From a virus (taxonomy: Duplodnaviria > Caudoviricetes): a DNA stretch of 60,054 nt. The position numbers and the translations under genes were made by a program. Below are positions 5,002-48,156 of this stretch, one piece after another. The notes beneath the pieces were generated by a model, which was not told the origin of the DNA, did not search any database, and saw only the letters and a program-made list of their open reading frames with translations. Within the stretch, counting starts at the first letter, position 1. The number at the start of each line of letters is the position of its first letter. The DNA lies in IMG/VR virus record IMGVR_UViG_3300032092_000031, positions 1 through 60,054 of that record; one strand, written 5' to 3'.

Positions 5002-8000
5002 TTACTTCCTGCGACCTAATTGGAATAGCTTCTCCTTTATCATATCTCCTTTTAGTGTTGTTTTCGAGTACTCTTCGCTTTCCATATATCTTAAATAATC
5101 TATAAAATCCAATTTCTTTTGTTTTACTTCTTTTGAATCGGAACTGAAATCCTTAGACTTTTTGTATAAATCTTCTATAACAGAAGCCTTTGTTTCAATA
5201 ATCGACTTCTTGTACGCATCTAAATATTCTGAACCAAAATTATCCTCGATAGCTCTCTCTGTATAAGCTCCTAGTACTCTTGAGTCTTTAAAAAACTCTA
5301 TAGCACCTAGAACTCCTGATATTTCAGACATTCTCTGGTCACTAGAAGCGCTGTTCATTATATCATATGCAACCCTTCCTCTTATTGATGGACTCCTTTC
5401 TTTAACTAAGTTTATTACAGCCACATCTCTAGTTACATTTCTAACTATAGTTTCTATAACTTTTTGATTCATTCCGTATACTACCATCTTCTTGTACTTA
5501 AGAGACTTTTCAGGACCAAGGTCTTTTTCTATATCTTTTAATAAAGAATTCATGTCATTTATAAGAAATTCTCTAAGCTCATCTATTGATTTACCTAAAG
5601 CCTTAGTCTTTTCTGCTCTTGATTTTATTAGATTCTGCATTACGTCATTCCCACCTATTTCTGTTGTAAGCAACGCATAATCCATCATCTTATTCGTAAC
5701 TTGATTTAAATAGTATTTCTCAGGAGAAGCAACCAGTCTGCTCCCAACAGATGATACAGGAGATGATATAAGTATACCCGGGTCTTCTTTTATAGCCTTT
5801 ATTAATGAATTATCCTTGCCTGCAGCTTTTTCATATATAGAGTTCATTAAGTTCACTGTTATCTGAGTTAATGGGTTTCTCTTAAAGTCTCCAGTAAAAG
5901 ATTCTATTGCAGCTTGCGTTCTAGGTCCTGAAACTAATCTGCTTTTTTCTGCTATAGCCTGAATCATAGGAAGTGTTCCGTCTTTTTTCTCTGCGTACGC
6001 AAAACCACCAGTAGATTCATCGCTTACAATCTCATATCCTGTAAAAGGGTCTATATTTAAAAATCCTTTAGATAGAGCACTTAGCGTTGGAGGTACAGAA
6101 ACTTGACCAACACCAACCATGTCTATAGCATCTCTTACAGAATGGAGCAAAGGAATCATCCATGAGTCAGTCTCTATAGGGTCATTCATATAATCTCTTA
6201 AGCCATAGCTAACGAATCCAGTATACATCTCTTTTGCTAGGAATGGGAGAGGCACTTTTATGAATGCATTAGTAACGCCATCTCCAATATTATGCTTTGG
6301 GTTTCTAATTATCGCATAATTCTTTTTGTAGTAATCAGGCAGAGCTCTATACATCTCTCCCCAATACTCCTTTTCTTTTTCGTCATCAGATAGCGCACCT
6401 ATTGAAAACAATGTGGCATACGTTGCGCCTGCAACCATTTGCGACATTACAAAACTCGTTCTTCCTGGGCTCTTTTTAAATGCCTTGATAACAGCTCTTT
6501 TAGTAGCGTATGATGCAGATAAGTAAGGTATAAAATTATTCATGAATTTAATTGCATCTCCAACTCTAGAAAAGTTTGCTGTATTTCTAGATTCAGATGC
6601 CGCCAACTGACCAGCCTCTTCTGAAGAAAACCCTTTATCCATAAAATATTTCTTAGACTTCTTATAAACTATAAGCCTTGTCATCTTCTCAGTTGCACTA
6701 ACAATTGACTCACTAAAATCTATTGTACTATTAATACCGGATACAACTTGTTTTACGCCAAATAGTTCAAGTGGATTAAATCCAACCTTCTCGAATATAT
6801 TCTTATGACTAATACTATCATCTATGTATTTAATTCCTGTAAATATTTTATTATCATAAAACTTATCCATTCCGGACCTTAGCGCAATATCGCCAAACAC
6901 TCCGTTCTTAACAGCTTCTTTGTATATGGCATCTTTGTTTCTAATACTTGTACTAGCGGAAACCCATTGAGCTGCTATTTCTGTATATCCTACAGGGAGA
7001 ACAGGATTAATACCTCTAGCTGTAAGTATTGCTTGTATCGGGTCTAATGTAACTAACTGTGTTACACCAAATCCAGCATTAGCGATAGTTGCAAAAAATC
7101 TTATGGCTTTTACTCCAAGCACCATTGATGCTATATTTACCCATCTATCAGTTTTAGAGCTTTGATAGAATTCTTTTGAAAACCACTCAGGTACAGTTAA
7201 CATCTTGTCTCCGTCACTATATCTAACTCTCATGTTGATGTATCCATCTTTTGGTTTTACATAAACTTTATCGCCAAATTTATCGGTCTTATCTGTGCCA
7301 TCATTATTCTTTTCAGTCTCAGCTACTTTTACTGCAATATCTTGATTAAATATATTGGTGCTATCCATCTGAGGTAGCTCCGACCTTACAGCAGTATCAA
7401 GCAACTGAAGGGCTTTGTTTGAAGCTATGTTCCTAAGTGCAGTTGTAGCATATACGTTAAATAACGCAGAATAATCTGTTATAGCGGCACCATCAGAACC
7501 TCCCTTCAAAGACTTTATTGTATTTCCGCCCTGAGTTGCTACGAATGAGTTATTCTCTAGTAGCGTTTCATTTATATATCTAATAGGAACGTATTTATAC
7601 TGAGATAAGTCGTCATATACTGCTTGAGATACCAAACCTGCCTCATATTGTTCATCTAATATTGATTTGAATGCAGAGAAGGCTGATTCTGACCTAGCAT
7701 CAATATCAGCGAATTTATCTGATTTAGAAGCTGCATTCAAAAAAACTTTAGCATAATCGGATGTGTATGGAACTCCATTTATAGACTCCATTTTATACTT
7801 ACCTAAAGAATATGTTCCATCTTGATTTCTTATCAAGACACCTCTTTCTGCTATATATTCTAAAGATTTTTGTCTTTTATTTCTAGCTTCTATAACCTTA
7901 TCTGTAGCTGCTTTAATTTCTTCTGACCTAGATTCTATTTCAGACATTATCTTGTCAGCCTTTTGATGCCTGTCTCTAACAAGTTCGACTAACTTATCAA

Positions 8001-10824
8001 ATTCACCTTGATTTTTTTCATCTAAATTAGCTTCTACTATTTTTTTATTTATTTCATTTATCTCTTCAGTTATACTGTCTAGCTTCTTTTTAACCTTTGC
8101 TGCAGCCTTATCTATTGTTTCATACTCTGCTAGTGCGGTATTGTATTCTGCATCAAATTGCTGAAACCTATTAAACTTATCGCCTAACATTCTTTGAATC
8201 TCTATCAATCTTTTTACTCTAATAACCTCTTCGAGTAAACCCTTCTCGCTAAACTTCTGGTTCCCTAGTTGAATTGTAGGCTTGTCGCTAAGTCCATTAT
8301 ATACATTTTTATTAAATTCATTTATCTTCTCGTTAGACTCTACTGATGTTTGTCTAATTTTTTCTAACGCAGATACTAGTAAATCAGAAAATTGACCAGT
8401 TTTTCTAAGCTCTTTTATTACATTTACTTGATTCTCATCAATAGCTTTCAGGAATTTTCTCAAATAAGTTTGATTTACTGTTTTAGCTTCTTTAGCCTGC
8501 TTTTGCTGTCTCTGCGTTCTTGTTGCTGCATGAACTAAAACCTCCTCTTCTGTTGGAATTATACTAGCTTCTGTATCTAATGTTGCATTTTCCTGCGACT
8601 CAGGAATAGTAGCGCCTGTTGTATCTTGTACTGTTGGTTCGTTTAACTGAGACTCAAACTTAGACTTAACATCTGCTTCGTTTATTTTAACATTATTTTT
8701 TTTGAACCAATCTGATATTCCTTTAAATGCTTTATCTGCAGCTTTCTTAAAATCTTTTAATTTTTCATATGTTTCTGCAAATACCTCAAGAGCCTTAGCA
8801 TAAATATTATTAATATCTAGCCCTTGTACTTCAGCTCCTTCAGGCAACTCAGCTCTTAACCATTCAGGTAATACATTAGTTTCACCGCTCCTTAATCTAG
8901 AAGCAGCCTGTCTTGCTTTTTCTGCAACGTCAAGTTTGGGTGCTACTTCCGCTTGGCTGCCGATATTGCTATCGCCAATATTTGCGCCCTGCTCCGTGGC
9001 TTGCCGTTGGCCCCCTTCTCCTTGCCCGACTTCTTGTTGTCTAGGAATAACTCCCGTAGGTTCTGCTGTACCGCCTTCTTGTACGGTAGAGACTTGCTCG
9101 TTTTCTTTAGTGGCATCTTGTTCTATTTTAGATTGTGTTTTATCATCTACTTCTTGAGGAACTTTCGTGTCAAGTGTAGTAATAATTCTTGTATTTAATT
9201 CATCTATTTCTGCTTGTACTTGAGGCTTTATTGTATCATCAGCGTCTTTTAGTTTATTTTGAAGCCCCTTCTTTTTCATTATCAAACCAACAATAGTTCC
9301 TTCTTCTTCAGTACCAACAGAATCCCCTGCAGCTTTTTTAGCCTCATTATATTTATTTACTTCATCTCTAACTGTTTTTGCAAAACCTGCTGGAGATTGT
9401 CCTGTTAATTCTAGCTCTGTAGCATAATCAACTAAGTCGTTAGGGTCTAATGAAGCTAGTGCACTAGTTGCATAAGACTGAAGATATTTAGGAACCTTGG
9501 TAGCCTTACCAACAATAGCAAACGCTAGACCAACAATACCCTCCATTTTTACATTATCTAGAATCTCTTGATTTCTATTTGGATTTTCTAAATTTTGGTC
9601 TGCAAGGGCTTCTTGTCTAACTATCTCCATTCCACCTGCGACAGTCATGTCAATAGCTAATGGGGCAGCCGACTTACCTGCGGCTGTTACGGAATCCTTA
9701 AGGAATTGCTTTGCTTGTTTTGCGAACCCTGTTAACGCCTTGTTAGCAGTAGGTGCAGCAAATGCTTTAAGTATCTTGCTACCAAAGAACTGGCTAGCAG
9801 CACCCTCTAATGCACCTGTTATAGCTCCAGGCTTCTCTGCATTCTTAGCAACCTGCAATGCCTCTTCATCACTCAGTCCATTCATTTTAGCTACCTGAAA
9901 TGCTTGTTGAGCTGCATTTATTCTTCCTGTTCTACCTTGTATGGCAGCAACTGAAGCTAAACTATATCCTGGAACTACTAGATTTACTGGGGCAGTTATT
10001 AGACCTGCAGCAATATCCGGAAGAACACCACCACCACCATAAGCAATTTCTCCTGCTGTACCTCTTTCTGTTGGGACAGCTCCTTGATATTCTTGAGTTG
10101 ATTGACCTGAATACAAGTCTCTTGTTGGTGAACCTACCTGAGAAAGCGTAGGCATTCTTAATGTGCTTTTACCAGATAGGAACTGTATCTTACCTTGGTC
10201 ATCTAATCTATCGTACTCATCTAGGCTCTTTATAGCGTTATATCTATCTTTTACCCCTAGTATTATATTCTCGAATATACCATCTACTTGCCTTGTTACG
10301 ATAGGGTATCTGTCCTTGTTTAATTTTGTACTAAGCTCTCCTGATTTAATATCTTCAGATAATGTTTTTCTTAAATTAGGAGCAACAAAATTGTCAAAAT
10401 ACATCTTGTCTGATGCACTGTTTCTAGCTGTAATTATAGTATTTTCTATAGCATCTGGAACGTACTTTGTTCTATCTTTCTCTATCTCAGCTTCTGTTAA
10501 TTGTCTTTGAGGAGCAAATGATTGTATATCACTAACTTCAGGAACAGCTATTGGCTGCACAGGAGCACCCTTTTCTACCTTGCCAACTAACTCTGGCTTT
10601 GGTTGAGCTTTAGCTTTACGTGGCTTTTCCATACCTGCACCCTGCAGAGATATAGGTCTAGGTTGAGCTTCAGATGTAACACCTGTTAATAAAGGCTGAA
10701 CTCTCCTAGCAGGACTAATAGGTCCTGATTGAATAGTTCCATCTTCAATTCCTCTATCAAAAATAGCTCTCAATAATCCTCCCCTAGGCGGCTGCTGTTG
10801 ATTGTCGTTCTGGGTATCTGCCAT
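5002..10824 (-). CDS. Large internal virion/ejection (cargo) protein with coiled coils and LPD38-like C-terminal region
   Basis: 1940 aa; last of three genes after the muzzle gene; C-terminal motifs TANFSRVG..NNFIPYL, LPDYYKKNY, FIKVPLPF resemble LPD38. Confidence 0.65.
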   Translation of the reverse strand: MADTQNDNQQQPPRGGLLRAIFDRGIEDGTIQSGPISPARRVQPLLTGVTSEAQPRPISLQGAGMEKPRKAKAQPKPELVGKVEKGAPVQPIAVPEVSDIQSFAPQRQLTEAEIEKDRTKYVPDAIENTIITARNSASDKMYFDNFVAPNLRKTLSEDIKSGELSTKLNKDRYPIVTRQVDGIFENIILGVKDRYNAIKSLDEYDRLDDQGKIQFLSGKSTLRMPTLSQVGSPTRDLYSGQSTQEYQGAVPTERGTAGEIAYGGGGVLPDIAAGLITAPVNLVVPGYSLASVAAIQGRTGRINAAQQAFQVAKMNGLSDEEALQVAKNAEKPGAITGALEGAASQFFGSKILKAFAAPTANKALTGFAKQAKQFLKDSVTAAGKSAAPLAIDMTVAGGMEIVRQEALADQNLENPNRNQEILDNVKMEGIVGLAFAIVGKATKVPKYLQSYATSALASLDPNDLVDYATELELTGQSPAGFAKTVRDEVNKYNEAKKAAGDSVGTEEEGTIVGLIMKKKGLQNKLKDADDTIKPQVQAEIDELNTRIITTLDTKVPQEVDDKTQSKIEQDATKENEQVSTVQEGGTAEPTGVIPRQQEVGQGEGGQRQATEQGANIGDSNIGSQAEVAPKLDVAEKARQAASRLRSGETNVLPEWLRAELPEGAEVQGLDINNIYAKALEVFAETYEKLKDFKKAADKAFKGISDWFKKNNVKINEADVKSKFESQLNEPTVQDTTGATIPESQENATLDTEASIIPTEEEVLVHAATRTQRQQKQAKEAKTVNQTYLRKFLKAIDENQVNVIKELRKTGQFSDLLVSALEKIRQTSVESNEKINEFNKNVYNGLSDKPTIQLGNQKFSEKGLLEEVIRVKRLIEIQRMLGDKFNRFQQFDAEYNTALAEYETIDKAAAKVKKKLDSITEEINEINKKIVEANLDEKNQGEFDKLVELVRDRHQKADKIMSEIESRSEEIKAATDKVIEARNKRQKSLEYIAERGVLIRNQDGTYSLGKYKMESINGVPYTSDYAKVFLNAASKSDKFADIDARSESAFSAFKSILDEQYEAGLVSQAVYDDLSQYKYVPIRYINETLLENNSFVATQGGNTIKSLKGGSDGAAITDYSALFNVYATTALRNIASNKALQLLDTAVRSELPQMDSTNIFNQDIAVKVAETEKNNDGTDKTDKFGDKVYVKPKDGYINMRVRYSDGDKMLTVPEWFSKEFYQSSKTDRWVNIASMVLGVKAIRFFATIANAGFGVTQLVTLDPIQAILTARGINPVLPVGYTEIAAQWVSASTSIRNKDAIYKEAVKNGVFGDIALRSGMDKFYDNKIFTGIKYIDDSISHKNIFEKVGFNPLELFGVKQVVSGINSTIDFSESIVSATEKMTRLIVYKKSKKYFMDKGFSSEEAGQLAASESRNTANFSRVGDAIKFMNNFIPYLSASYATKRAVIKAFKKSPGRTSFVMSQMVAGATYATLFSIGALSDDEKEKEYWGEMYRALPDYYKKNYAIIRNPKHNIGDGVTNAFIKVPLPFLAKEMYTGFVSYGLRDYMNDPIETDSWMIPLLHSVRDAIDMVGVGQVSVPPTLSALSKGFLNIDPFTGYEIVSDESTGGFAYAEKKDGTLPMIQAIAEKSRLVSGPRTQAAIESFTGDFKRNPLTQITVNLMNSIYEKAAGKDNSLIKAIKEDPGILISSPVSSVGSRLVASPEKYYLNQVTNKMMDYALLTTEIGGNDVMQNLIKSRAEKTKALGKSIDELREFLINDMNSLLKDIEKDLGPEKSLKYKKMVVYGMNQKVIETIVRNVTRDVAVINLVKERSPSIRGRVAYDIMNSASSDQRMSEISGVLGAIEFFKDSRVLGAYTERAIEDNFGSEYLDAYKKSIIETKASVIEDLYKKSKDFSSDSKEVKQKKLDFIDYLRYMESEEYSKTTLKGDMIKEKLFQLGRRK

Positions 10825-32588: not shown

Positions 32589-32601
32589 ATCTACAAACGT
32601 A

Positions 32602-33596
32602 AATTCTTTCTTTTAAAGAAAAAAATTTTTCTATCCTAGTGTTAATAATCAATGAGTTATAACATTTCCTTCTTAATGTATATTAATAGTTACTTTTCTA
32701 ATAAATAGAGACCAAAAATAGTCCCTAATTTAAGCTCTAAAATGACCTAAAAAAGATATAGGTTTCTAGTATGACCCTATTTAACTGTTTCATTGCATGC
32801 CGGACTATTGCTAAATAGCAAGATATACTTCCGAATTTGGACCTATTTTGTTACGGACTTTGGCAAATAGTCTCTAACAATTCTAAAAAATTACTAAATA
32901 CCATTTTCTATTTTAACAGCCTAAAATGGGGTTTAAAAAGTGTTTTGTGTATAACCGAGTGGGGTTCTCTCTATACACACCCCCAGGCGTACCGCTCGGG
33001 TAATTGCGTTTCCCTGCCCGTGTACCCTACACATATGAATTTTTTGTAATATGATGGCTTTTCTTTACATATGGTAATTTTATTTTATACGAAATAGCCT
33101 AAACTTTTTAGCATGGCTACTAAATATATTAGTACTAACTTCTTTGGGATACTTTACTAACTTTTTTAGTATTACCAGTACACAATATGTCGATGTTATT
33201 GCGTGTTTTTTATAGCGTCAATCCTTCTAATATATACCCCTAAATAACTACCTTACTATTCATACTTTACCCCTATATTTTTACCACTATATTTATACCC
33301 TTTCTTTGTCTTATTTAATATCCCCAAAATTTGCAAATAACTGTCAAATTTTGTGGCTATATTTTTACCCTTTATTAGCTGTTATTTTATCTTATATCCC
33401 TTGCTTTATTTTTTACTTGCCATTCTTTTTTTACTTGTATCTTTTCCAATTTTACCGCTTATCTAGCTATTTTACCGCTTAAATATAATTTGAAAAATAA
33501 ATACCCCTATTTGATTGTCGAATATACCCGCCCCCATAACTTCGTTCTCATATTTATTAATCGGGCAAAAAAGTAAGTCCCACAATTTTATGTTTT
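32602..33596. other. ~1 kb non-coding divergence region (probable genome terminus/packaging or origin region)
   Basis: No credible ORF; GC-rich patch 32957-33028; G-poor plus strand with repeated TATACCC/TTTACC motifs. Confidence 0.5.
32808..32821. promoter_or_regulatory. Palindromic operator-like site TTGCTAAATAGCAA
   Basis: Same TTGCTA-N2-TAGCAA at 39394 and 44029. Confidence 0.5.
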
Positions 33597-34028
33597 ATGA
33601 AAAATACAAAAGTGAATTTTACAATTGACGCCGCTTCGTTTGTTAATCTTAAAGGAGCGAATTTTTCAGGCTTAACTAGACACGCTGAAATTTCGGTTAA
33701 TGATTCGGACACTTGGGGTAAAGGTTTAACGCCTTTATTCAGTCAGTTAGTACAAAGTATGTTCAAAGGTATTGCAAAAGGTCAGCCAATTAATTGGGCA
33801 ATGTCGGTAATTAACGAATCAGGTAGCGTACTTGTTGAAGGTAGTGAAGTAATGAAGGGTGATTCTGTTAGCACTGCAAAAGCTATCTTTAAGGCTATAA
33901 GGGTACAATTTGCCCCTGAGGTTGAAGGGTTAGACATGCAGAATTTACCTAAAATTTCGGCTATAAAACAAGCCTATAAAGACGCTGCAAATAAGCGTTT
34001 AACCTTTGCAGAATTATGCGAAAATTAA
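33597..34028 (+). CDS. First early gene, hypothetical protein
   Basis: 143 aa; candidate promoter TAACTTCG at 33537-33544. Confidence 0.75.
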   Translation: MKNTKVNFTIDAASFVNLKGANFSGLTRHAEISVNDSDTWGKGLTPLFSQLVQSMFKGIAKGQPINWAMSVINESGSVLVEGSEVMKGDSVSTAKAIFKAIRVQFAPEVEGLDMQNLPKISAIKQAYKDAANKRLTFAELCEN

Positions 34029-34029
34029 G

Positions 34030-34490
34030 GTAGTATTTCGGGCTATATTAGGACATTGCGAATAGATGTCCGCTAATATCGGATATTAGTATAGCCCCCA
34101 ATAGTTATGCAATTCGCTCTAAAATTGCCGTATGTATATAGTTGCTGCACATAGATAGCGTAATTCTATATATTTATATTGAATCTTTGAAATTGTTGTC
34201 CCTTTACTTTGCAATTTAGCAAAGTGAATCCAATTAGGATAAACACTAATTAACCGAAATATTTTTTCAAGTATTTCATTAGTGCCTGAATCATTACGCT
34301 ACATATACATATATGTAGGGGAGTTCGTAATTGTATATAAGTCAAGCATCGGTTACATTAGGAGTGTAAACGCGTGAAGGTATACGAGTCGAAAGTCAAT
34401 ATTGATAGCAAAATATATGAGTCGACTATAAACAAACATAACATATATACAGGAAAGGGTAATACTATTTAGTGTTACCCTTTTTCTTTA
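34030..34490 (+). ncRNA. Putative large structured non-coding RNA
   Basis: ORF-free, with at least 8 complementary stems including a long-range closing helix and crossing (pseudoknot) pairings; ends in a terminator. Confidence 0.55.
34454..34489 (+). terminator. Intrinsic terminator
   Basis: AAAGGGTAATACTA / TAGTGTTACCCTTT stem running into TTTTTCTTT. Confidence 0.75.
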
Positions 34491-34492
34491 TA

Positions 34493-34536
34493 GCCACGAC
34501 ACGAAAGGTGTAGCATTCGATTGCATCGTGGCACTA
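34493..34536 (+). ncRNA. Mini tRNA-like hairpin element
   Basis: GCCACGA/TCGTGGC 7-bp stem, CAC-GAAAG-GTG hairpin, GCA-TTCGAT-TGC T-loop-like arm, 3' ACTA. Confidence 0.4.
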
Positions 34537-34605
34537 TTTTATTTAACTATTTCGTAAAAACGGAATGGGGTAAAAATTTTTTATTTCATCATTAAATTAA
34601 ATTTT

Positions 34606-34788
34606 ATGGCAAAGTATTATCAAGTAGTTACTCATGAATTATTAGGGGAGGAGAAAGTTACATATGCTAGAAGGTATAGCAATAAGGAGAAGGCTATGCA
34701 GATAGCCGAATCTTTAATTGAAGACGGCTACACATATGTAAAGATAGAAGATAGTAAAGGAGAAACATATGCAGAATATGAAATCTAA
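34606..34788 (+). CDS. Hypothetical protein
   Basis: 60 aa with A-rich leader. Confidence 0.65.
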   Translation: MAKYYQVVTHELLGEEKVTYARRYSNKEKAMQIAESLIEDGYTYVKIEDSKGETYAEYEI

Positions 34789-48088: not shown

Positions 48089-48156
48089 ATCCGGTTAGTT
48101 TAATTGGTAAAACTATTCGTACGGATAAGATATTGGTTCGATTCCAATACCGGATT
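48089..48156 (+). tRNA. tRNA-like element / pseudo-tRNA with truncated anticodon arm
   Basis: Acceptor ATCCGGT/ACCGGAT, TA, D arm GTTT-AATTGGTA-AAAC, TATTC-GTAC-GGATA, T arm ATTGG-TTCGATT-CCAAT; no CCA. Confidence 0.65.

Follow-up and report, generated by a model that had tools for sequence, protein, structure and literature searches.

A conserved three-way junction RNA following the first gene of the rightward arm in an uncultured freshwater phage

What is encoded by the longest stretch without a gene in the rightward arm of a phage genome, and does it belong with the gene that precedes it? The question is raised by IMG/VR record IMGVR_UViG_3300032092_000031, a virus record of 60,054 bases with an estimated completeness of 88%, which was analysed over its whole length (hereafter the window). 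The first gene of its rightward arm, an orphan open reading frame (ORF) of 143 amino acids (aa) called ORF1, is followed by several hundred nucleotides (nt) in which the initial annotation had seen a single pseudoknotted RNA of about 460 nt, co-transcribed with the orphan protein and possibly bound by it. We report that this region opens with a compact three-way junction (3WJ, model R1; Table 1), which we hold with high confidence to be a real RNA structure, selected on the + strand, and that the region consists of local hairpins in a row, with a junction at either end, rather than of one pseudoknotted fold. The same 3WJ follows an unrelated ORF in other phages. As its best explanation we tentatively put forward below a new family of structured non-coding RNA (ncRNA) of phages, probably early, whose invariant surfaces would bind a conserved factor.

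The prediction that the junction would covary among homologues was borne out in 14 loci. Across these, 95.2% of 294 cells are paired, and 16 of the 21 pairs have changed on both sides (8/8 in P1, 6/6 in P2 and 2/7 in P3), giving a covariation score of 0.80 versus 0.23 in column shuffles (0/500 as high); a control in which pairing partners were slid reached at most 0.23. Five cells inside P1 and P2 are G-U and none is A-C, the only C-A cells (3) lying at the junction-side end of P3. P1 and P2 are conserved as helices only, and conservation at the sequence level is found in the P2 loop (consensus UGNAAAUAG), in the single G of J2/3 and in P3 (consensus AAUAUCGRAUAUU). The invariance of P3 across the set is near but not absolute, since in one locus (L151) it differs at two pairs, one of them compensatory and the other, the loop-closing pair, broken. 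Pairwise, the first 205 nt of the non-coding sequence are 77-89% identical where third positions of the ORF are 54-66% identical, and the non-coding sequence is therefore under selection of its own.

The genomic position of the 3WJ is equally constant. In the loci examined it always starts 6-11 nt past the stop codon of a first rightward ORF of 119-167 aa and precedes roughly 400-850 nt devoid of any ORF of at least 50 aa, with a RepL-like gene on the other strand across an intergenic region of ~1 kb. One copy is present in the window and in each of five whole records (5/5). Because the motif begins so soon after the stop codon, there is no room for a promoter of its own, and it is therefore most likely co-transcribed with ORF1, a fair conclusion from the layout. 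Read-through of the stop codon was considered and rejected, as the in-frame extension runs for only 15 codons to the next stop.

The 14 loci were assembled by three routes. A search with the 143-aa protein led to five loci, four at 86-95% identity (L001, L002, L061 and L062, which with the window form the close set, or group A) and one at 55% (L063); all share the layout of the window and 5/5 carry the 3WJ. Compared with the window, L001 and L061 carry compensatory differences at one pair of P1 and over most of P2, and L063 retains the P2 loop UGCAAAUAG and the P3 core AAUAUCGAAUAUU although its P1 and P2 are entirely different. A pattern made from the kept letters matched 71 stretches in viral contigs, 10 of which fold into the same junction: 3 on contigs already known and 7 new (L069, L094, L130, L078, L096, L122 and L124). 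A covariance model was built from 13 loci, which score 75-88 bits. Finally, a search anchored on RepL provided a sample independent of the motif pattern, with 20 loci, 3 of them without upstream DNA; the 3WJ was found in 7 of the 17 others, including one new locus, L151 (68.8 bits), that the first pattern had missed. With L151 included, the model scores range from 68.8 to 88.4 bits, versus at most 25.1 bits in a background selected by the pattern. A second pattern in which the P3 apex was left free recovered only the contig of L151 again among 70 new loci, and a scan with a fifteen-letter pattern, which matched 57 stretches, mostly by chance, was taken no further. A blastn search of 1.5 kb against phages gave no match. 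As for mimicry of a host RNA, the junction geometry was seen in 0/120 pattern matches among those listed for bacterial and archaeal genomes, which does not exclude such mimicry.

The element is read as RNA of the + strand, the strand of ORF1, because both G-U pairs and the alignment fold favour it. RNAalifold applied to the five sequences of group A gave -101.74 kcal/mol for the + strand (covariation term -10.8) and -79.06 kcal/mol for the - strand (term -3.56), whose alignment shows C-A mismatches where the + strand pairs G-U.

By its sequence, the RNA is new to Rfam 15, of a kind already known, namely phage-borne structured ncRNA without known function. No family reaches its gathering score in the region, the only match in the window being a tRNA at 48089-48156 (+; 47.9 bits), which may be atypical; ARAGORN reports 0 tRNA genes anywhere in the window. 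At E <= 10 over 32600-34700, no match starts within 34029-34414, and from 34415 on only weak terminator-like matches occur (<=25 bits against cut-offs of 42-114); RF00005, the tRNA model, has no match in the region at that threshold. In agreement with the initial annotation, no Rfam model of transfer-messenger RNA (tmRNA), RNase P, signal recognition particle (SRP) RNA or introns matches, nor does any riboswitch or ribozyme model. The GOLLD and ROOL models match neither at gathering score nor at E <= 10, and the loci of the relatives have no Rfam match either. Of what the initial annotation proposed, a structured and selected RNA on the + strand that lies outside the Rfam families is supported by covariation, alignment folding and the Rfam search.

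The wider region was also described correctly in part. The stretch 34029-34605 contains only ORFs of 31-32 aa and exceeds in length every other non-coding part of the rightward arm, where other apparent gaps are filled by ORFs of 65-78 aa. On the + strand the whole 462 nt fold better than shuffles (z = -4.6, 0/100 as good), and every complementary segment that had been listed is present when the sequence is read directly (Table 1). By parts, z is -3.06 for the 3WJ alone (2/200 shuffles as good), -1.32 for 34102-34235 (19/200), -2.17 for 34236-34345 (6/200), -1.90 for 34346-34450 (7/200) and -6.17 for the terminator with the mini-junction described below (0/200).

Table 1. Coordinates of ORF1, the 3WJ and the other segments of the structured stretch in the window.
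Feature	Position	Strand	Remarks
ORF1, 143 aa, first gene of rightward arm	33597-34028	+	orphan
Long-range helix, GTATTTCGG / CCGAAATAT	34033-41 / 34254-62	+	letters present
3WJ motif (model R1)	34040-34097	+	58 nt; covariation in 14 loci
3WJ P1 (closing helix), GGGCTATA / TATAGCCC	34040-47 / 34090-97	+	8 pairs; letters present
3WJ P2 (second helix), GGACAT / ATGTCC	34051-56 / 34066-71	+	6 pairs, 9-nt loop UGCGAAUAG; letters present
3WJ P3 (third helix), CTAATAT / ATATTAG	34073-79 / 34083-89	+	7 pairs, loop CGG; letters present
3WJ linkers			J1/2 = UUA; J2/3 = G; J3/1 none
Claimed loop pseudoknot, GCGAAT / ATTCGC	34058-63 / 34112-17	+	letters present
Hairpin, GCAAUU / AAUUGC	34109-34128	+	RNAalifold, 5 sequences
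Long imperfect hairpin, inner GCU/AGC stem	34130-34179	+	RNAalifold
Hairpin with ACUUUGC/GCAAAGU (34206-34225)	34198-34234	+	core in group A
Hairpin stem, ACTTTGC / GCAAAGT	34206-12 / 34219-25	+	letters present
Variable module	34235-34345	+	local fold z -2.17; holds CCGAAATAT, CACTAAT/ATTAGTG, ATTACG/CGTAAT and CTACATAT/ATATGTAG
Claimed crossing helix, CACTAAT / ATTAGTG	34244-50 / 34278-84	+	letters present
Nested helices, ATTACG / CGTAAT around CTACATAT / ATATGTAG	34293-98 / 34326-31	+	letters present
Hairpin with conserved loop GAUAGCAA	34387-34427	+	RNAalifold alignment
Terminator stem	34454-34483	+	letters present
Intrinsic-terminator-like hairpin, 12 bp, then U-rich tail	34454-34491	+	seen in sequence
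Mini three-way junction, 40 nt	34493-34532	+	covariation in 6 sequences

The proposal of one pseudoknotted fold is not supported by comparison with the close relatives. Both the long-range helix and the helix said to cross it depend on a segment that the window shares with L001 alone; L002, L061 and L062 lack it and L063 has no counterpart of it, so that these pairings lie in a module that is swapped out among close relatives. In minimum-energy folds CCGAAATAT / CCGAAAUAU pairs locally and not with 34033-41. The loop pseudoknot fares no better: its central loop G is an A in 4/4 close relatives, in which ATTCGC is unchanged and a mismatch results, and the GCGAAU/AUUCGC pairing is perfect in the window only. 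ATTACG/CGTAAT and CTACATAT/ATATGTAG carry no covariation information, because they are seen only in two identical copies.

What replaces this fold is a succession of local elements, which varies from clade to clade and in this clade closes with the terminator hairpin and a second junction. The hairpin at 34109-34128 offers none for or against, because all of its pairs are invariant. The imperfect hairpin at 34130-34179 shows one compensatory change (U-A to A-U) in the window and several G-U pairs. The ACTTTGC hairpin has its core TTTGC/GCAAA kept in 5/5 sequences of group A, although no compensatory change is seen and the outer pairs are broken in 2/5. The module at 34235-34345 is shared by the window and L001 only and is represented by a different, shorter module in L002, L061 and L062 and by another sequence in L063. 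In the hairpin with the GAUAGCAA loop, the inner and outer stems differ according to the version of the module with pairing maintained, several pairs having changed on both sides (alignment columns 372-410). Likewise, the predicted terminator at 34454 has one stem version in the window and another common to the 4 close relatives, and each version pairs. L061 combines a 3WJ version as in L001 with a middle module as in L002 and L062, which suggests, at the level of sequence, that modules recombine between close relatives.

The stretch ends with a second, smaller junction. This mini-junction consists of a 7-bp P1 followed by two 3-bp hairpins (loops GAAAG and UUCGAU) and then ACUAUUUUAUUU. In group A plus L063 (n = 6), 93.6% of its cells pair and 7 of 13 pairs have changed on both sides, with a covariation score of 0.55 versus 0.19 in shuffles (0/500). 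In the form seen in the window it occurs only in the 6 loci with the 143-aa ORF.

Several observations were made on the same stretch in other loci. After the mini-junction, L001 and L061 lack the window segment 34537-34585 and carry instead an ORF for a small hydrophobic protein, not found in the window. L148, a RepL-bearing locus (~1780-1850 nt from the RepL-like gene), is without the 5' 3WJ and has after its first ORF an ORF-free stretch of ~510 nt ending in a small three-way junction and a U run; by eye, this 3' junction resembles the mini-junction of the window. Six loci (L069, L094, L130, L151, L122 and L124) share a module, absent from the window, made of UAAGCGGGUAC...CGCUG, a hairpin and AUAAUA, ~330-440 nt after the 3WJ. 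Five of its loop letters pair by eye with letters past AUAAUA, in versions that differ by clade (GUCUC/GAGAC, GCCUC/GAGGC, GUUUA/UAAAC and AGGUA/UACCU); these compensatory differences suggest a candidate pseudoknot in those other clades.

The RNA motif is independent of ORF1. The ORF ahead of the 3WJ belongs to the family of the 143-aa protein in 6/14 loci and to another family in 8/14, and the two families are unrelated by BLAST (E > 1) and by hhalign (probability 0.1%). Six ORFs of the second group look related to one another in an alignment, at 18-33% identity. The ORFs of this group are very basic, with an isoelectric point (pI) of about 10 for the first ORFs of the other clades and 6.6-9.0 in the 143-aa family. 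A dedicated partnership between protein and RNA is thus disfavoured, because the RNA motif is wider in distribution than either protein. In related phages the first-ORF slot is occupied by unrelated proteins between conserved flanks, with RepL on one side and the 3WJ on the other, an arrangement that fits an exchangeable accessory early gene.

ORF1 itself is a genuine gene under purifying selection, synonymous variants being far more numerous than amino-acid variants in five sequences. Its codons 124-133 hold fewer synonymous variants (4 versus 7-13 per ten codons), a modest difference from which no conclusion was drawn. The 143-aa protein has no Pfam or PHROG match; a word search found only 12 clusters, and 2 real clusters occur among 1.84 billion representatives. 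For its AlphaFold2 (AF2) model, which has a pLDDT of 87.9, Foldseek found no similar fold at E <= 0.001 in either PDB or BFVD, and the ESM Atlas yielded only unnamed viral clusters, below 0.9. Two weak profile matches to giant repeat proteins (E 5.6e-07 and 1e-04; Ig, GA-like and other repeats) were read as compositional and set aside.

How, then, might such an RNA act? We propose that the first rightward transcription unit closes with this structured, non-coding region, an RNA of ~500 nt (~34040-34535, + strand) that would be made together with ORF1 from a start in the divergent control region, would end at its own terminator and the U-tailed mini-junction, and would persist as a stable RNA. 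A docking surface is proposed because the helices are kept only as helices and the loops and one arm as sequence: the invariant faces of the 3WJ would dock a conserved factor, a protein either of the host or of the phage (ORF1 excepted), which the RNA would sequester or recruit during take-over. The variable hairpins would then serve as scaffold and the end structures would protect the RNA. Transcription, stability and the binding partner are what we infer here, and our confidence in the complete statement, including its trans-acting binding role, falls slightly short of an even chance.

A precedent of a kind exists in phi14:2, a crAss-like Cellulophaga phage. Two long intergenic stretches of its early region already exceed most genes in transcription at the first time point; their RNAs, whose function is unknown, do not fall off as other early RNAs do and are still abundant late in infection (bioRxiv 10.1101/2020.03.07.982082). 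Both phages have long ORF-free stretches among their first rightward genes. The present phage is only distantly related to that group, with a terminase about 29% identical to those of Pachyviridae and Elemovirus phages, and the available parts of the phi14:2 paper report no conserved structure. Elsewhere in the literature, no conserved RNA of this kind was found described in crAss-like or flavobacterial phages, apart from the remark on phi14:2.

Several results weigh against a stable, early, factor-binding RNA. The family is small (14 loci), and the 3WJ is absent from 10/17 RepL-anchored relatives with upstream DNA and from 5/5 cultured relatives. R1 has no match in the first 9 kb of phi14:2 (L133), where, moreover, the first 406 nt fold no better than shuffles (z +0.86). 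The phi14:2 precedent is accordingly an analogy only, as neither sequence nor fold is shared, and absence from so many relatives means that the 3WJ is not essential to this type of phage. The near-invariance of P3 and AAUAG is partly imposed in 8/14 loci, among them the seven pattern-derived ones, these letters having been required by the pattern, which leaves 6/14 loci free of this bias (the 5 derived from the protein, and L151). As a single sequence, the - strand of the same 462 nt folds as well as the + strand (z = -5.0 versus shuffles). Finally, 24 sequencing runs, with labels mostly of lake or fresh water, hold parts of the region; all are DNA runs and 0 are RNA runs.

Among other explanations, the one that survives best, although we consider it unlikely, is control of transcription in cis, by which the nascent 3WJ would act on RNA polymerase or compete with downstream hairpins, thereby gating read-through at the 34454 terminator and the U-tailed mini-junction and hence expression of the whole rightward arm. 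The motif is suitably placed, between the divergent control region and the terminator-like hairpins and ahead of a long co-directional arm; the 6-11-nt spacing would bring a terminating ribosome to P1 and could couple folding to translation, and sequence-invariant loops would suit contact with a conserved host enzyme. P2 and P3, two hairpins joined by a single invariant G, resemble the HK022 put RNA, which consists of two hairpins joined by one nucleotide, lies early in its operon upstream of terminators and mediates antitermination in cis. This likeness of the P2-G-P3 arrangement, together with a terminator-like hairpin ~360 nt downstream, is one of outline only; the closing helix P1 is not known as a part of put, and the host phylum and RNA polymerase differ. 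Cis control would also leave ~350 nt of further selected, partly covarying structure unexplained, and a simple terminator scan of the window did not list the 34454 hairpin.

Less probable still is that the junctions are merely signals for end protection or processing, which would shield the RNA or the ORF1 mRNA from nucleases or mark sites of cleavage, in the manner of a 5' exonuclease-resistant RNA (xrRNA) or a 3' tRNA-like processing signal. Compact junctions do stand at both ends of the non-coding stretch, and the 3' strand of P3 runs straight into P1, with U-A after the 5' strand of P1, which resembles the stack of the tRNA acceptor and T arms. The phi14:2 intergenic RNAs outlast other early transcripts. 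Mere stability, however, requires no sequence-invariant loops, and the tRNA likeness finds no echo in ARAGORN or in the Rfam tRNA model, even at E <= 10; a CCA follows P1 in only some of 13 sequences. No conserved pseudoknot such as would mark an xrRNA was found, the GCGAAT/ATTCGC pairing being mismatched in the close relatives, and a block to 5'-3' decay would lack an obvious target, because RNase J, the 5'-3' exonuclease, was above cut-off in 0/5 Flavobacteriia and Sphingobacteriia genomes tested.

We regard as very unlikely an element acting at the level of DNA, in which the hairpins would form as cruciforms or in single strands and serve a replication origin, a primer-RNA region or an operator. 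The minimum of GC skew and the strand switch at 33-34 kb, the adjacent RepL-like gene, the good folding of both strands as single sequences and the near-palindromic P3, which would form a palindromic site in duplex DNA, are in keeping with this idea. Against it, the G-U pairs lie on the + strand only, the alignment fold of that strand is better by 22.7 kcal/mol, compensatory change across three junction helices is not expected of a duplex protein site, and direct repeats of the origin type are found elsewhere, at 33230-33481 upstream of ORF1. The least probable of all, a ribonucleoprotein in which the RNA is dedicated to the 143-aa protein, as first suggested, can draw on adjacent and probably co-transcribed partners, on a mini-junction shared by the 6 loci with this protein and absent in that form from other clades, and on the very basic first ORFs of those clades, some products of which could bind nucleic acid, and is nevertheless set aside on the unrelated ORF before the same 3WJ in 8/14 loci (hhalign 0.1%) and on a 143-aa protein of near-neutral pI (6.6-9.0 across its family) without match to an RNA-binding family or fold.

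The setting is that of a phage with two diverging arms. In the leftward, structural arm lie the genes of a terminase, a portal, a tail fibre and a protein with a match to the Crassvirus muzzle family, and in the rightward arm a primase/helicase gene and many small genes; the arms diverge at ~32.6-33.6 kb, where cumulative GC skew has its minimum and where the RepL match is the first leftward gene. The terminase is ~29-32% identical to those of Cellulophaga (Pachyviridae), Flavobacterium (Elemovirus) and Maribacter phages, and, given this resemblance, the host of this uncultured freshwater phage is probably a flavobacterium. The divergent intergenic region of ~1 kb (32589-33596) that separates the RepL-like gene from ORF1 is a candidate origin or control region. 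It coincides with the GC-skew minimum and contains families of direct repeats (e.g., 33260-33299 and 33344-33369), besides two exact copies of the 13-nt ATTTTACCGCTTA, at 33449 and 33469. A -7 box of the Bacteroidota type was seen upstream of ORF1 in 3/9 loci and not in the window, and no conclusion on promoters was drawn. An ORF of 1940 aa (5002-10824, - strand) has no Pfam or PHROG match. The DFDxD motif of crAss-type virion RNA polymerases, to which the phi14:2 paper refers (bioRxiv 10.1101/2020.03.07.982082), is absent from the 5 large window proteins checked in this record, which is 88% complete, and there is therefore no basis for naming a virion polymerase as the transcribing enzyme.

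With respect to RNAs already described, GOLLD and ROOL, ornate RNAs that phages often carry (PMC12286853), are likewise large, multi-helix ncRNAs without known function; the present RNA is smaller and modular, with only the 58-nt junction conserved across clades. The 3WJ may be among the 8,495 anonymous covarying motifs, of ~67 nt, catalogued in IMG/VR viral intergenic regions (Fremin and Bhatt, 2023; PMC10690425). The passages of its main text consulted here contain 0 occurrences of crAss, Bacteroid- or Flavobacter- motif names.

The 3WJ combines compactness and strong covariation with well-marked invariant faces, a constant place in the genome and naturally swapped modules around it, and is as such a well-defined object for work on binding, probing and transcription. 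To our knowledge, few phage-encoded structured RNAs exist and a function is known for almost none of them, and we know of no explanation for the abundant early ncRNAs of Bacteroidota phages, including the crAss-like group. The gene ahead of the motif occupies a slot whose content can be replaced, a usual trait of accessory early genes, and this corrects the idea of a protein-RNA pair. In a bolder view, which we hold to be doubtful, the 3WJ would be the working part of a new class of regulatory RNA in Bacteroidota phages, a module of the nascent RNA that would reprogram a conserved host factor, be it the transcription machinery or another, by docking on it. If so, the phage would be switched from its first gene to its whole replication arm, or a host system would be disarmed, by an RNA whose swappable hairpin modules evolve in an arms race.

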